Assembly (NCBI GenBank): GCA_964534365.1
Contig: CAZHOI010000004.1
Location: forward strand, 1 to 57,179
Direction of reading: 5' to 3'
DNA from: an uncultured Candidatus Saccharibacteria bacterium
Lineage (GTDB): Bacteria > Patescibacteriota > Minisyncoccia > Phycocordibacterales > SW-6-46-9
DNA: 57,179 nt
The translations under genes and the position numbers were made by a program. The notes under the pieces were generated by a model that was given only the letters and a program-made list of their open reading frames with translations, ran no database searches and had not been told where the DNA came from. Of this stretch, positions 6,727 to 48,284 are shown piece after piece. Each line of letters begins with the position of its first letter. Positions within the stretch are counted from its first letter, which is position 1.

Positions 6727-6747
6727 CACTACCAGCTTCATGAAAAT

Positions 6748-6772
6748 AAACTACCACTTTGGTAGTTTTTTT
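6748..6772. terminator. Likely bidirectional intrinsic terminator between hup and the GIY-YIG gene
   Basis: aaactacc-acttt-ggtagttt hairpin, A-rich on the left and T-tract on the right. Confidence 0.6.
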
Positions 6773-6774
6773 AA

Positions 6775-7014
6775 TCATCCAAACAATTTCATTAATTCTT
6801 TTCTTCCTGAACTACTTTTCCACCATTTTCCCCTAGCTTTTGCTTCTTTCATAGCTCTGAATACTTCTGAATGCAACAATACTAGCGGAATTCTGTTTTT
6901 AGTAGATCTTACGTAACCTTTGTTATGTCGATCTAGTCTAGATTGAAGATCAGAAGTATAGCCGACATAAGTTCTAAGATTTTTTTTACTTAGCAAAATG
7001 TATACCCAATACAT
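6775..7014 (-). CDS. Small GIY-YIG nuclease-family protein (catalytic Glu apparently Gly)
   Basis: WVYIL..TYVGYT.DL..RL..HN.G...STK.R.P pattern; the usual RE motif reads RG. Confidence 0.8.
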   Translation of the reverse strand: MYWVYILLSKKNLRTYVGYTSDLQSRLDRHNKGYVRSTKNRIPLVLLHSEVFRAMKEAKARGKWWKSSSGRKELMKLFG

Positions 7015-7060
7015 TAATAATATTATATGTTACTAAATACAAAATAAGTCAGAAGGTGGT

Positions 7061-7183
7061 CTCGCACAAAACTTGGAAGTTTGTAAGTTCGGGTCGCCAT
7101 AAGCGAACCTTGCACAGATTTACGCTGCAGATTGCGGGTCGCCATAAGCGAACCTCGCACAAAACTGCTAGCAGTTTTGTGCG
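7061..7183. repeat. tRNA-3'-end-like tandem repeats with hairpin spacers
   Basis: gggtcgccataagcgaacct exact at 7091-7110 and 7136-7155; ctcgcacaaaact at 7061 and 7154; perfect 28-bp palindrome 7156-7183. Confidence 0.8.
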
Positions 7184-7250
7184 GGTGGAGAGAATCGAAC
7201 TCTCGACCACAGCTTGGAAGGCTGTTGTTATACCACTTAACTACACCCGC
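7180..7250 (-). tRNA. tRNA-Gly (TCC)
   Basis: GCGGGTG..CACCCGCA acceptor stem, anticodon arm acagc-CTTCCAA-gctgt, TTCGATT T-loop; no encoded CCA. Confidence 0.95.
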
Positions 7251-7274
7251 CCACTTATGCATAAGTGGGCGGGT
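7245..7274. repeat. Perfect 30-bp palindrome overlapping the tRNA-Gly(TCC) 5' end
   Basis: acccgcccacttatg|cataagtgggcgggt. Confidence 0.9.
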
Positions 7275-7436
7275 ACACCCATCTAATTCATAGTAGTAAA
7301 ACAATAATAGCTAAAGATAGGTTCTGATACAACATTAATTGCCTTCAAAGGCAATTTTGGTTATTCTTGTCAGTATTGTTTAGAGCATCGGTCTCTATAA
7401 CATCGGGCCGCTCTTTATATGGCGAGTCCCGCAAAA

Positions 7437-7562: not shown

Positions 7563-7835
7563 CTATCTGTAAATATCTTTGCGTAAATCAATTGACTTCA
7601 AAATTACTTCGCTGTCGTCAATATCATAACGCAATCTTGCTTGTTTCATGCGATAACGCCACAACCCATCTCCCTGGGCGACGTTAGTAAGCTTTTTAAC
7701 TTTTGAAGAATTTGTAGGATTATTTCTAAGGTTAGTAATTGCCTTTTCAAAGTCAGACTTATAACAAGGATATTTCTTAAAGAATTTAATTGATTGCCTT
7801 TCAAAAGACTTGGTAAAGAAAATTTGGTATTCCAT
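7563..7835 (-). CDS. RelE/ParE-family type II toxin
   Basis: 90 aa, basic; WRYRMKQARLRY and terminal RKDIYR; directly downstream of the antitoxin. Confidence 0.8.
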   Translation of the reverse strand: MEYQIFFTKSFERQSIKFFKKYPCYKSDFEKAITNLRNNPTNSSKVKKLTNVAQGDGLWRYRMKQARLRYDIDDSEVILKSIDLRKDIYR

Positions 7836-7838
7836 TTG

Positions 7839-8090
7839 TTACAAACGTTTCAGTAAATCCTCAATTGGTTTTACTCTACCCGCCTTAATATCTTCATTCG
7901 ACTGCTCTATTTGGGCTTTGATTCTTGGATTAGTTGCATCCAAAAAATCCTCAAATTGATCAATATCAACTACCCCAACTACCGGATAGCCGTCCTTTTC
8001 AATAATTAGATGAGTTTTTTTAGTCCGCACTTCACGCACTAAATTTCCCAGTTGACGCCTAAAGTCTGTGATTGCAATTGTTTTAATCAT
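7839..8090 (-). CDS. Phd/YefM-family antitoxin
   Basis: I.ITDFRRQLGNLVREV...IIEKDGYPVVGVV N-terminal motif; start moved to the ATG at 8090. Confidence 0.8.
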   Translation of the reverse strand: MIKTIAITDFRRQLGNLVREVRTKKTHLIIEKDGYPVVGVVDIDQFEDFLDATNPRIKAQIEQSNEDIKAGRVKPIEDLLKRL

Positions 8091-8100
8091 AATGATCACT

Positions 8101-11002: not shown

Positions 11003-11377
11003 CTATATTAAGTTTTTAATAAATTTTAGACGAGACTTTTTGGTTTCGTGATTAATCTTGATCAAAATAGCACATAAATTAATTTCATATTGATATAAAT
11101 TATTAGCCGCTATATAAGTTTGAACTGACTTCTTGAATCGCTCTAATTTCCTAGGATACAGACGCTCCGACAGACTTACCAACATCGACGAATTTACATC
11201 AGCAGCTTTGACCTCAACAAAATAGTAGGTGTCACTTCTTTTCGCCACCAGATCAATTTCACCAAAAACATAAGTGACATTCTCGCTTATAACCTCATAT
11301 CCCTCATTTAAAAGAAACCTTTTGGCCAGTTGTTCACCTATTAACCCAGTTTTCCCCAATTGTGACTTTTTAGCCAT
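11003..11377 (-). CDS. yraN: YraN family (UPF0102) nuclease
   Basis: G..GE..A..FL...GY, GEIDLVA, FVEVK (PD-(D/E)XK) motifs. Confidence 0.85.
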   Translation of the reverse strand: MAKKSQLGKTGLIGEQLAKRFLLNEGYEVISENVTYVFGEIDLVAKRSDTYYFVEVKAADVNSSMLVSLSERLYPRKLERFKKSVQTYIAANNLYQYEINLCAILIKINHETKKSRLKFIKNLI

Positions 11378-11428
11378 ACCGCTTAGTATAGCGTTATTCC
11401 GTCTAAACCTCGCTTAAAGACCCGTCGT

Positions 11429-11501
11429 TTATCCCCTAATCCACATAGTTATCCCCTATTCCCCATAGTTATCCACACAAATAAATTGTCCCTGGGTATA
11501 A
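11429..11501. promoter_or_regulatory. Cluster of DnaA-box-like 9-mers with a 20-bp period
   Basis: ttatcccct 11429 and 11449, taatccaca 11437, tattcccca 11457, perfect ttatccaca 11469, inverted tgggtataa 11493. Confidence 0.6.
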
Positions 11502-11605: not shown

Positions 11606-11680
11606 GCGGGCCGCACTCATTGTGTGAGCCTCGCATATATCAAAACTATTCCATATATGCGGGTATACCCACACACTCAG
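11606..11680. repeat. Palindromic element related to the 7134-7186 repeat, upstream of tRNA-Gly(GCC)
   Basis: gcggg-ccgc..gtgagcct-cgca(tatat..atata)tgcgggt; 11668-11680 is complementary to 11748-11760 (1 mismatch). Confidence 0.6.
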
Positions 11681-11755
11681 TTTTGAGTTATGATACTCGT
11701 TGTAGATTAAGTTAATCGCACGTTCCGCTTTAATTATTATTTTAGAGCTGAGTGT

Positions 11756-47546: not shown

Positions 47547-47651
47547 GTAGTGTTATAACTACATAATTTACTAAATTAGCAAAGTATTTAATCTTCTTAA
47601 ACCCGTTAGGAGAATAAAAACTAAGACGTAAAACCATTAAAGAATGATGGG

Positions 47652-47671
47652 TACTACGATATATCGTAGTA
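47652..47671. promoter_or_regulatory. 20-bp perfect palindrome, copy 2, over the promoter of the TrpR-like gene
   Basis: tactacgatatatcgtagta followed 4 nt later by tgttataat (extended -10, 47676-47684). Confidence 0.8.
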
Positions 47672-47694
47672 ATGGTGTTATAATAGATTTCGAT

Positions 47695-48099
47695 ATGCCT
47701 CATATTTCAAATCGTAAGATTTCTGATAAGGTCAGCCATAAAATTAATACTAACTTGGCTGGAATGTTCAATCACGCTGCAAAAACCAATAATACAGCTG
47801 CCGTGGTACGGGAACTTTTAACCGATACTGAACAGATTATGTTGGCCAAACGCTTAGGAGCAGTCTATCTTTTAGGTCAAGACCTTAGTAATTACAAAAT
47901 CAGTCAGATATTAAAAATGAGCGAATCAACCATTGCACGTATCGCGGTTAGTAGGGAAGCTGGAGCTTTTGACACCATTAAAAGTTTACTAAGTAAAAAT
48001 ACTCAAAATCAACCCTTTATTGATGTAATAGACCAAATTATTACCTTTTTACCCTCAAAAGCTAATAGAAAGTTCCGCGGTCAGATTCACAATAAATAA
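47695..48099 (+). CDS. TrpR-like (YerC/YecD-type) helix-turn-helix protein
   Basis: LLTDTEQIMLAKRL.A..LL....S.Y.ISQ.LKMS.STIARI; start set to MPHIS, 10 nt after the -10 box. Confidence 0.8.
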   Translation: MPHISNRKISDKVSHKINTNLAGMFNHAAKTNNTAAVVRELLTDTEQIMLAKRLGAVYLLGQDLSNYKISQILKMSESTIARIAVSREAGAFDTIKSLLSKNTQNQPFIDVIDQIITFLPSKANRKFRGQIHNK

Positions 48100-48127
48100 G
48101 CTTTCACAACATAAGAGTTCATAATAA

Positions 48128-48147
48128 CACTACGATATATCGCAGTA
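48128..48147. promoter_or_regulatory. 20-bp palindrome, copy 3 (hybrid of copies 1 and 2)
   Basis: cactacgatatatcgcagta, 28 nt after the stop of the TrpR-like gene. Confidence 0.75.
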
Positions 48148-48284
48148 TAATCGATCCATTTGTTTAGCTAATATATTAAGATAAAGCGACTTAACTAATC
48201 GTGGGATGTTTGACTCAGAAATTTGAAATGCCTCGATTATTTTGTAAAGCTTAGATAACACCTTGTCTTTATTGGTATAAATTC

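Follow-up and report, generated by a model that had tools for sequence, protein, structure and literature searches.

The window analysed here, a stretch of 57,179 nucleotides from a CPR/Patescibacteria-like genome, carries a tRNA-Gly(TCC) gene that is followed on the minus strand by a series of hairpins and a small GIY-YIG nuclease gene (Table 1). The tRNA gene was called at 7179-7250 on the minus strand by ARAGORN, and Rfam RF00005 matched it at 7180-7250 with a score of 74.4 bits. The 3' strand of its acceptor stem together with the discriminator base reads CACCCGC-A. The nuclease gene is co-oriented with the tRNA and lies after the repeats, as the initial annotation had placed it. Four contigs of independent assembly and four sequencing runs all show the same arrangement, which excludes an assembly artefact, and alignment of the contigs of the four runs to the locus showed neither variants nor copy-number variation. 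Over the whole locus, no nucleotide differs among the four contigs with the identical protein (100% identity), which makes them uninformative on covariation and copy number.

Table 1. Features at the two tRNA-Gly sites of the window.
Feature	Position	Strand	Sequence or description	Basis or remark
tRNA-Gly(TCC)	7180..7250	-	intact, uninterrupted, without encoded CCA	ARAGORN, Rfam
30-bp perfect palindrome, no spacer	7245..7274	.	ACCCGCCCACTTATG/CATAAGTGGGCGGGT	spans tRNA-Gly(TCC) positions 1-6
28-bp perfect palindrome, no spacer (bridge hairpin)	7156..7183	.	CGCACAAAACTGCT/AGCAGTTTTGTGCG	spans last 4-5 nt of tRNA-Gly(TCC)
GC hairpin unit A	7133..7158	-	GCGAGGTTCGC-T-TAT-G-GCGACCCGC-A	
Spacer of unit B	7114..7132	-	ATCTGCAGCGTAAATCTGT; holds the place of unit A's AT bridge hairpin	read from sequence
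GC hairpin unit B	7088..7113	-	GCAAGGTTCGCTTATGGCGACCCGA-A	both outer ends decayed
Truncated third unit	about 7060-7088	-	AT hairpin (CAAACTTCCAAGTTTTG) then TGCGAG	
79-aa GIY-YIG nuclease gene	7014->6775	-	co-oriented with tRNA-Gly(TCC)	Pfam PF01541, E 2.8e-13, residues 1-71
Bidirectional terminator-like hairpin	6744..6772	.	common to the convergent HU and GIY-YIG genes	right-hand limit of inserted segment
Third, diverged GC hairpin	11606..11634	-	GCGAGGCTCACACAATGAGTGCGGCCCGC	no GIY-YIG gene attached
Two further A-X-X'-A'-A modules	11635..11755	-		antisense side of tRNA-Gly(GCC) 5' end

Both ends of the tRNA gene are overlapped by palindromes, which had been described beforehand as perfect and proved to be so. 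They are the two longest perfect palindromes in the window, in which only about 3e-4 palindromes with arms of at least 14 nt would be expected by chance (calculated at 41.5% GC). Here we write A for the putative target word, X for the sequence after it and X'-A' for the inverted copy of A-X, which a fresh direct A may follow. In this notation, the 30-bp palindrome has on the plus strand the layout A-X-X'-A', namely ACCCGC CCACTTATG / CATAAGTGG GCGGGT, in which ACCCGC is antisense to the 5' end of the tRNA. The syntenic tRNA-Gly of locus L183 provides a second 5'-side palindrome, of another sequence (TGCCCGCACACCAAAT-C-ATTTGGTGTGCGGGCA). The 5'-side palindrome is absent at L208, L214, L216 and L209, and in a census of tRNA 5' ends strictly perfect hairpins were found only in the window and in L183. 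A crude count of inverted k-mers at the ends of 138 tRNAs gave values hardly different from those of shuffled flanks and was not used.

In the bridge hairpin at the 3' end, CGCA of the tRNA plus CAAAACTGCT is paired with AGCAGTTTTG and the TGCG with which GC hairpin unit A begins. The same architecture was observed in L005, L094, L123, L126, L127, L157, L181, L194, L088 and L216, with unrelated arm sequences and loops of 2-66 nt. The sequence of the bridge hairpin thus varies from locus to locus, and what is constant is that the tRNA's final 4-5 nt pair with the beginning of the GC hairpin.

Units of about 46 nt had been annotated downstream of the tRNA, and this description was borne out by a truncated third unit and by a 21-mer, AGGTTCGCTTATGGCGACCCG, which has exactly two copies on the minus strand (7090-7110 and 7135-7155) at a distance of 45 nt; no match arose in 100 shuffles. 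The 3' arm of unit A with its final A repeats the tRNA-Gly(TCC) 3' end, ACCCGCA, so that the repeat does end like the tRNA. Between AGTTTTGTGCG of the third unit and CGCACAAAACT at the end of the tRNA there is a long-range inverted repeat. The units belong to a GC hairpin family with the consensus GCGAGGYTCGCC-loop-GGCGRCCCGCA, which recurs in low-GC, CPR-like contigs. A metagenome scan with a degenerate pattern returned 120 hits, 96 of which were chance hits in high-GC contigs and were split off by GC content and a covariation test. The free Y:R position is a Watson-Crick pair in all 24 low-GC hits (16 C:G, 8 T:A) against 54 of the 96 high-GC hits, and an extra inner C:G pair is present in 24/24 against 14/96. 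The hairpin has 10-11 pairs, two bulges and a final A, compared with the continuous helix of about 12 bp, corresponding to acceptor plus T stem, and the discriminator of a tRNA-like minihelix that RNase P, RNase Z or the CCA-adding enzyme would accept.

Two other claims about the repeats did not hold. GTTCG had been likened to a T-loop, but the supposed T stem is unpaired, and 16 of the 24 related hairpins read GCTCG in its place with a compensating change in the other arm. Nor do the units re-create tRNA 3' halves or T-arms; they form a self-contained hairpin family which also occurs without a nearby tRNA or GIY-YIG gene, and no tRNA end has been replaced, the tRNA being intact and the insertion starting past its discriminator base. 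About half of the GC hairpins in other genomes have no GIY-YIG gene within 2.5 kb, and some, for example those after ftsZ-like genes, have no tRNA nearby, which means that the hairpins can persist or spread on their own. Clusters of solo GC hairpins were found in L099 and L135. Rfam, at gathering and at permissive thresholds, recognised only tRNAs and no family for the hairpins; its 'Plastid-psbl-rps4' matches are merely the antisense of tRNA-Ser genes. A CRISPR array was rejected, with only about 2.5 units, no match to a CRISPR repeat family in the window and no cas gene among the neighbouring ORFs scanned with Pfam. A group I intron was likewise rejected, as the tRNA is uninterrupted and Rfam detected no conserved P3-P9 core even at permissive thresholds.

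At the second tRNA-Gly gene of the window, tRNA-Gly(GCC), the modules read TATACCCGC ACACTCAG ..(about 67 nt).. CTGAGTGT GTGGG TATACCCGC ATATAT..ATATAT, in which TATACCCGC is a 9-nt direct repeat. Modules abutting the antisense acceptor word at tRNA 5' ends are present in L214/L217, L158, L105 and L183, and twice in the window. All three GC hairpins of the window lie beside the two tRNA-Gly genes, and its palindromes and GC-hairpin modules occur only at the two tRNAs with ACCCGC acceptor ends; no palindrome or module was seen at tRNA-Arg, and at tRNA-Pro only a weak 4-bp leader hairpin. The word ACCCGC itself occurs 20 times in the window with modules at only three places, and the word alone therefore cannot be the whole target. 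GC skew was uninformative about a replication origin near the DnaA-box cluster.

The order ClpP-RNaseY-HU-tRNA-Gly(TCC)-tRNA-Pro is kept in relatives. This synteny was traced through HU, because RNase Y homologues are at most 51% identical. The orthologous site in L208 is empty, the tRNA being followed by 15 nt and then the equivalent terminator. L216 and L214, whose flanks are 97-99.6% identical, differ on both sides of the tRNA: downstream, a 372-bp GIY-YIG cassette in L216 stands against 67 bp in L214, and upstream, 12 bp in L216 against a 77-bp antisense hairpin module in L214. At the same site, the GIY-YIG gene is thus present in L216 and absent in L214/L217. The protein encoded in L216 is only 35% identical to that of the window and is accompanied by a different hairpin. 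L209 and L183 carry at this site inserts of 130-165 bp, on either side of which 18-20 nt of the tRNA 3' end are directly repeated. These comparisons identify the segment as an insertion, and in the close relatives L216 and L214 presence or absence is seen at the strain level. Presence or absence at one site in close relatives, one of the traits by which a free-standing homing endonuclease is judged, was found here. The initial annotation, which had proposed a minimal element tied to tRNA ends, would have been contradicted by a lack of similar repeats elsewhere or by an arrangement fixed in relatives; what was found was repeats at other junctions, an empty site and strain-level variation.

The GIY-YIG residues Y5, Y16, R26, H30 and N31 are invariant in the alignment. 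The AlphaFold model of the 79-aa protein (pLDDT 95) has three beta strands and three helices. The nearest PDB entries by sequence are 1YWL (E 1.2e-5) and 1ZG2 (E 1.4e-3), and Foldseek returned 1ZG2 first, then nine Slx1 chains (TMq 0.58-0.72) and then I-TevI. Its sequence and predicted structure place the protein, which is no more than a catalytic domain, in the UPF0213/Slx1-like subgroup; it shares a fold and a sequence family with UPF0213 (YhbQ/YazA-type) proteins and with the nuclease domain of Slx1. The catalytic domain fills all 79 residues, with no DNA-binding domain of the kind present in I-TevI and the Seg proteins, and it is not evident how so small a protein could be directed to a particular sequence. 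Slx1 acts as a nuclease on branched and stem-loop DNA, in keeping with the palindromes around the window gene; unlike the window protein, it has a RING domain, needs Slx4 and is a repair enzyme that is not mobile. NCBIfam and PADLOC gave no meaningful match for the protein, so that a defence-system reading is unsupported.

Related small GIY-YIG genes were tabulated with their surroundings, as the initial annotation had recommended. A co-oriented tRNA gene lies within 300 nt at 61 of the 78 genome loci, which come from several phyla, and an opposed one at none; hairpin repeats occur at many of the junctions. Partial tRNA duplications or tandem arrays were found at many family loci, for example arrays of the ORF and a partial tRNA-Leu in L014 and L018. 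In loci with the reverse order, the ORF being followed by the tRNA, the 5' part of the tRNA recurs upstream of the ORF as a pseudo-copy interrupted by GC-rich palindromes. In L005, L183 and L209, small inserts lie between direct repeats that comprise 14-20 nt of the tRNA 3' end, and no recombinase was called there.

The hairpin type goes with the GIY-YIG protein clade and not with the chromosomal site. The window protein groups at 56-59% identity with tRNA-fMet-linked genes, all of which have a GCGAGG..CCCGCA hairpin; further carriers of this hairpin are L183 (52%) and the tRNA-Gly-linked L181 (49%). A hairpin lies directly upstream of the ORF at 10/10 examined loci of the ELWWKS clade, to which the window belongs. 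Within one protein clade, the hairpin end tracks the adjoining tRNA (TCCGCC for Ser, CCCGC for Asp and CCAGC for Gln). A direct and an inverted copy of the tRNA 3' end, each of at least 6 nt, are both found in the spacer at 35% of the loci, against 4% of mismatched tRNA/spacer pairs. The tRNA-Leu loci of Bacteroidota and Ignavibacteria are without mimic hairpins, and the hairpins are therefore not needed by the whole family.

These facts are best explained, in our judgement with a probability of roughly 55%, by a selfish, homing-endonuclease-like cassette that is aimed at a DNA word of tRNA acceptor ends on either strand. The cassette would extend from about 7178 down to about 6775, inserted right after the discriminator base of tRNA-Gly(TCC), and would comprise, in the order of the tRNA strand, the bridge hairpin, about 2.5 tandem GC hairpins and the 79-aa GIY-YIG gene. 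Acting like a free-standing homing endonuclease, the nuclease would help the cassette to spread or to be retained. Since it is a bare Slx1/UPF0213-like domain without a DNA-binding domain, it probably recognises a DNA structure, a hairpin or a cruciform. The proposed target to be cut is the short word (C)CCGC(A) of the acceptor end. The acceptor stem is self-complementary, and the same word is therefore present in antisense at the tRNA 5' end, which would explain the 5'-side palindrome and the modules beside tRNA-Gly(GCC). Each event apparently leaves the inverted and direct copies of an A-X-X'-A'-A signature; perfect palindromes may represent recent events, and looped hairpins older ones revised at the centre. 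Expression of the gene would probably depend on read-through from the tRNA promoter, the mRNA being released by tRNA-processing enzymes.

It is worth considering that the hairpins may act at the RNA level. The tRNA and the GIY-YIG mRNA would then form one transcript, in which the bridge hairpin and the acceptor-like GC hairpins, with their discriminator-like final A, would be elements of processing, stability or translation control, read like tRNA punctuation by RNase P, RNase Z, RNase III or the CCA-adding enzyme and serving to release and stabilise the nuclease mRNA; such a role is compatible with mobility of the cassette. Co-orientation is complete (61 against 0), some ORFs start 1-2 nt past the tRNA or end inside its 5' end, and a search for a sigma-70-like promoter between the tRNA and the ORF found none. 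Pairing is conserved with varying sequences and loop lengths, and the stem mismatches that were noticed (n=3: units A and B; 11672-11659 of the window; the L181 bridge) are all G-T on the module sense strand, that is, G-U in RNA. The mismatches and the variable loops fit selection on single-stranded RNA as well as an origin at the DNA level. The 286-nt region folds far better than its shuffled versions (z = -6.2), but the prediction has the acceptor stem of the tRNA displaced by competing hairpins from its flanks, which would hinder rather than help tRNA maturation. Moreover, modules are also found antisense at tRNA 5' ends and after protein-coding genes, loopless perfect palindromes are atypical of selected RNA hairpins, and the lack of an Rfam family speaks in the same direction. 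We regard a function of the hairpins in RNA as a possible but clearly less probable reading.

A bolder variant of the cassette reading, which we consider possible though rather unlikely, is that the bare Slx1-like domain is the enzyme of an unrecognised hairpin-guided mobile element. It would act also in trans on hairpin or cruciform DNA and write A-X-X'-A'-A on either strand, exploiting the self-complementary and nearly invariant acceptor stems. On this view, hairpin-ended breaks would only recently have given rise to the two perfect palindromes that overlap tRNA-Gly(TCC). Such an element would be the functional counterpart, on a different nuclease fold, of the REP/RAYT (REPIN) and IS200/IS605 systems. 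These consist of short, GC-rich, imperfect intergenic palindromes, occurring singly, in tandem or beside the gene of a small nuclease with a single domain. The RAYT gene has REPs on either side, the enzyme is an HUH Y1 transposase, and IS200/IS605 elements insert on the 3' side of a short target word, with which the foot of the element hairpin pairs. The hairpins described here, with 24 low-GC metagenome loci and three copies in the window, are likewise a dispersed family of short, imperfect GC-rich intergenic palindromes. In contrast, there is no HUH Y1 transposase here and the sole hairpin-linked gene is that of the GIY-YIG protein; we know of no tRNA-end mimicry and no A-X-X'-A'-A signature in the REP/RAYT or IS200/IS605 systems.

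The likeness to REPs admits a further interpretation, in which the hairpins are an independent family moved by another enzyme or by recombination, and the GIY-YIG gene, a small selfish or housekeeping gene, has no relation to them; both would gather in the tolerant niche beside tRNAs. The solo hairpins, without a GIY-YIG gene, at more than half of the low-GC hits, the clusters in L099 and L135, the ftsZ-like sites and the solo copy in the window (11606-11634) would fit. It would not account for the association of hairpin type with protein clade rather than site, for the hairpin arm that follows the adjoining tRNA end within one clade, for the hairpin directly 5' of the ORF throughout the examined ELWWKS-clade loci, or for the confinement of the hairpins of the 57-kb window to two tRNA-Gly genes. 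We therefore judge it improbable. Leftovers of an island or prophage integrated at the tRNA 3' end by an integrase, with the repeats as att duplications after deletions, are more improbable still. Integrase islands at tRNAs do duplicate the tRNA 3' end at the border of the insert, as do the direct repeats in L005, L183 and L209, but no ORF with a match to an integrase (tyrosine or serine recombinase) was found from RNase Y to ClpB, the inserts are just 130-400 bp, the window's direct copy spans no more than 7 nt and is always paired with an inverted copy, and the same design recurs at tRNA 5' ends on the other strand. That the palindromes and repeats are chance features or ordinary terminators can be set aside, since an ordinary terminator-like hairpin does close the locus (6744-6772) but two palindromes of negligible expectation sit at one tRNA, the 21-mer was never matched in shuffles, no T-run follows the hairpins, and the architecture recurs in dozens of unrelated loci.

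Features of the favoured cassette reading are known separately from other systems. In Neurospora mitochondria, GC-rich palindromes lie at tRNA borders in an AT-rich genome, and fungal mitochondria contain GC clusters as well as small free-standing GIY-YIG ORFs with partial duplication of the adjoining gene; to our knowledge, these organelle palindromes are of unrelated sequence and are not copies of acceptor ends. The SegB protein of a phage is reportedly much larger and equipped with a separate DNA-binding region, whereas the window protein is a 79-aa catalytic domain encoded in a cellular genome. We know of no acceptor-end-mimicking hairpins, nor of inverted and direct target copies, at SegB. 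The gene of the GIY-YIG homing endonuclease SegB lies in the tRNA gene cluster of T4, and the site that the enzyme recognises takes in the T-psi-C stem-loop, a conserved motif of tRNAs (PMC2330249). Like the free-standing GIY-YIG genes of T-even phages, the window gene is a nuclease gene among tRNA genes which is present or absent between relatives, and SegB too is inherited together with the adjoining tRNA region (PMC2330249). Within the CPR, insertion sequences of rRNA genes encode GIY-YIG proteins outside any recognisable intron (PMC11270868). They share with the window the organism group and a GIY-YIG ORF in or beside the gene of a structured RNA, but are located inside rRNA genes, and the main text of that report does not mention tRNA (PMC11270868).

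The cassette belongs to a large tRNA-linked nuclease family, and a literature search returned no published description of tRNA-linked UPF0213 cassettes. UPF0213/YhbQ-type proteins are widespread, with two solved structures, and in the literature searched we found neither a published function nor a report of tRNA linkage; the present results point to a function that can be tested. The nearly constant attachment to tRNA genes in several phyla, the presence or absence between near-identical strains, and the accompanying partial tRNA duplications or acceptor-end hairpins suggest that a large part of the UPF0213 family consists of selfish nuclease cassettes directed at tRNA genes. Annotation of tRNAs can be misled by the pseudo-tRNA pieces and acceptor-like hairpins beside these genes. 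If the proposal is correct, it would account for a common class of small genes annotated as 'hypothetical' and for odd fragments of tRNAs in the genomes of CPR, Bacteroidota and Ignavibacteria, as well as for the role of tRNA flanks as hot spots of small insertions in streamlined genomes. It would also describe a minimal nuclease of about 80 aa which, unlike known homing endonucleases, is targeted by DNA structure and a short word.

The arrangement described in the initial annotation, in which tRNA-Gly(TCC) stands between two perfect palindromes and is followed by repeats and a small GIY-YIG gene, was borne out; four independent assemblies and four sequencing runs all give the same sequence for the locus. 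The palindromes are the two longest perfect ones in the 57 kb; by our own arithmetic, the chance expectation for such palindromes is approximately 3e-4. On the minus strand, unit A (GCGAGGTTCGCTTATGGCGACCCGCA) comes next after the tRNA; beyond a 19-nt spacer lies unit B, the same unit in slightly decayed form, then a third unit that is truncated, the GIY-YIG ORF and a terminator hairpin that the convergent HU gene shares. The tRNA-Gly and tRNA-Pro genes are divergent, and the hairpin between them is probably a regulatory or terminator element common to both.

Features of the window and of comparison loci (L-numbers) from genome and metagenome scans
Feature	Location	Strand	Particulars
tRNA-Gly(TCC)	7250->7180	minus	ARAGORN; Rfam 74.4 bits
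30-bp perfect palindrome	7245-7274		right arm: first six tRNA bases (minus-strand reading)
28-bp perfect palindrome	7156-7183		left arm: last four tRNA bases (minus-strand reading)
GIY-YIG ORF, 79 aa	7014->6775	minus	
Hairpin AATTGCCTTTGAAGGCAATT	7337-7356		kept in L208, L214, L216 as aaaattgcctttgatagcaat
ParE-like toxin, Phd/YefM-like antitoxin	7563-8099	minus	directly beyond tRNA-Pro; also in identical contigs L001-L003
UPF0102/YraN-like small nuclease gene	11003-11377	minus	Pfam E 8.6e-15
DnaA-box-like words	11425-11490		TTATCCCCT, AATCCACAT, TTATCCCCT, TTATCCACA
Third GC hairpin	11606-11634		beside tRNA-Gly(GCC), antisense side of 5' end
Palindrome around CGATATATCG	47652-47671		TACTACGATATATCGTAGTA, perfect over 20 bp
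Related palindrome around CGATATATCG	48124-48151		
Bridge hairpin, tRNA-fMet	L005, L094, L123, L126, L127, L157, L194		
Bridge hairpin, tRNA-Gly	L181, L216		
Bridge hairpin, tRNA-Trp	L088		
tRNA-Gly(TCC) site	L208		empty: 15 nt, then terminator
tRNA-Gly(TCC) site	L214/L217		no GIY-YIG; antisense GC-hairpin module upstream of tRNA
tRNA-Gly(TCC) site	L216		different GIY-YIG gene (35% identical) behind A-X..X'-A'-A spacer
tRNA-Gly(TCC) site	L209		165-bp insert between 18-nt direct repeats of tRNA end
tRNA-Gly(TCC) site	L183		130-bp insert between 20-nt direct repeats of tRNA end
HTH_23/HTH_38 gene, 222 aa	L209-L211, 3085-3753		between tRNA-Gly(TCC) and tRNA-Pro
Six GIY-YIG genes, period 526 bp	L014, 1975-4829		behind tRNA-Leu(CAA), Ignavibacteria
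Four GIY-YIG genes, period 355 bp	L018, 2501-3709		behind tRNA-Leu(CAA), Ignavibacteria

HU homologues at approximately 70% identity are named Patescibacteria or Paceibacteria, and the organism is therefore CPR-like. In relatives the order ClpP-RNaseY-HU-tRNA-Gly(TCC)-tRNA-Pro is kept, while the content beside the tRNA varies. Since the flanks of L216 and L214 are 97-99.6% identical, the differences at the site are at strain level; the spacer of L216 carries a 10-nt copy of the tRNA end. Judged from these comparisons, the GIY-YIG segment beside tRNA-Gly(TCC) has been inserted, in an event of a recent kind. The HTH gene inserted between tRNA-Gly(TCC) and tRNA-Pro in L209-L211 is transposase-like in appearance.

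The reading of the repeat unit as a T-arm did not hold; the unit belongs to a family of GC-rich hairpins in low-GC contigs. A degenerate pattern derived from the window and L005 matched 120 metagenome loci, 96 of which, in high-GC contigs, are chance matches. Low-GC contigs account for the other 24, and these make up a real family, GCGAGGYTCGCC-loop-GGCGRCCCGCA: its unconstrained Y:R position forms a Watson-Crick pair in 24/24 (16 C:G, 8 T:A) versus 54/96 of the high-GC controls, and a further inner C:G pair occurs in 24/24 versus 14/96. The units of the window differ from the family solely by C->T, which leaves a G-T wobble at the inner pair. Both tRNA-Gly and initiator tRNA-Met end in CCCGCA, and the 3' arm with its final A has this same sequence. 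At every locus with a GC hairpin after a tRNA there is also a bridge hairpin, in which the last 4-5 nt of the tRNA pair with the first bases of the GC hairpin, TTGCG or TGCG; its arms are unrelated in sequence from locus to locus and its loops span 2-66 nt. The loop-free 28-bp palindrome of the window is one extreme of this conserved architecture, which we summarise as A-X-X'-A'-A, where A is the acceptor-end word, X the sequence after it and X'-A' the inverted copy of A-X, followed by a new direct copy of A. The same GC hairpin also lies directly 3' of an ftsZ-like stop codon (C-terminal ..DIPAFLRQ..) in several distinct genomes (L091, L102, L108, L117, L147, L155), where coding CCCGCCTTTTT approximately 25 nt upstream is able to pair with its 5' arm and the A-run before it.

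The 5' end of a tRNA, read on the antisense strand, presents the same word as the 3' end. Antisense modules were found at tRNA 5' ends in L214/L217, L158 and L105, and in L183 a palindrome with 16-bp arms spans the 5' end of the syntenic tRNA-Gly; the 5' palindrome of the window fits the same rule. Two further modules, which contain the 9-nt direct repeat TATACCCGC, lie antisense at the 5' end of tRNA-Gly(GCC) (11756). The tRNA-Arg of the window showed no module, and its tRNA-Pro no more than a weak leader hairpin of 4 bp. This pattern argues for recognition of a DNA word over a purely RNA-level role. Hairpins acting as RNA processing or stability signals are nevertheless compatible with several of the facts, and such a role need not exclude mobility. 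In the predicted fold, however, the flanking hairpins would displace the acceptor stem of the tRNA, which looks like a cost and not a function.

The UPF0102 gene is the next same-strand ORF downstream of the two GIY-less modules, approximately 230 nt from the last hairpin. The cluster of DnaA-box-like words between this gene and tRNA-Gly(GCC) may be a replication origin or a promoter under DnaA control; GC skew, at a resolution of 4 kb, gives no pointer for or against an origin. Elsewhere, the two related palindromes, approximately 470 bp apart, bracket an ORF (47644-48099) and resemble a pair of operators.

Species-representative genomes, when scanned, yielded 80 GIY-YIG loci (78 non-redundant) in Patescibacteria, Bacteroidota, Ignavibacteria and other phyla. 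A co-oriented tRNA lies <=300 nt from the gene in 61/78, upstream of the ORF in 43 and downstream in 18; an opposed tRNA within 300 nt was found in 0/78. Some ORFs start 1-2 nt after the tRNA or end within it, and L014 and L018 are tandem arrays of ORF and partial tRNA-Leu, which in every unit of L018 runs from the D-arm to the 3' end. Where the tRNA is downstream, a pseudo-copy of its 5' part, broken by GC-rich palindromes, precedes the ORF. In L032 and L050, from two different genomes, an identical 21-bp palindrome CCTGCCTGCCGGCAGGCAGGG occupies the same D-loop position of pseudo-tRNAs, a tRNA-Asn derivative in one case and a tRNA-Thr derivative in the other.

Where a CPR locus has its tRNA upstream, the modules in the spacer have a hairpin arm that copies the tRNA end, and inside one protein clade the copied end tracks the tRNA (Ser TCCGCC, Asp CCCGC, Gln CCAGC). 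Direct and inverted copies, each >=6 nt, are both present in 35% of loci versus 4% of mismatched tRNA/spacer pairs. The many solo hairpins would suit a repeat that spreads apart from the GIY-YIG gene, but this explanation is weakened because protein clade, not chromosomal site, predicts hairpin type. At tRNA-Ser loci (L069, L030, L051 and others), the module ends in GCGAAGGAGAGA, a Shine-Dalgarno-like word 13-22 nt before the ATG that is complementary to the tRNA-Ser 3' strand and trailer and could thus be hidden by base-pairing to the tRNA end.

The GIY-YIG protein consists of the catalytic domain only (predicted structure, pLDDT 95) and most closely resembles UPF0213 (1ZG2, 1YWL) and the nuclease domain of Slx1, then I-TevI. 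Slx1 is a structure-specific nuclease. This fact, and the occurrence of a bare domain amid palindromes, suggest that the substrate would be a DNA structure.

Full-text literature searches brought up no account of UPF0213 cassettes linked to tRNAs. The nearest reports are T4 SegB, whose gene sits in a tRNA cluster and which recognises a tRNA motif (PMC2330249), and GIY-YIG-encoding insertions in CPR rRNA genes (PMC11270868). Since no promoter was found before the GIY-YIG ORF, we propose that read-through from the tRNA promoter would drive expression of the cassette. Every event would leave two copies of the acceptor-end word, one inverted and one direct, possibly from breaks whose hairpin-closed ends are then opened off-centre, and loops would arise through later revision at the palindrome centre. 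The locus is most likely a selfish cassette that acts like a free-standing homing endonuclease gene, a reading for which SegB, likewise placed among tRNA genes and recognising a tRNA motif, is a precedent.
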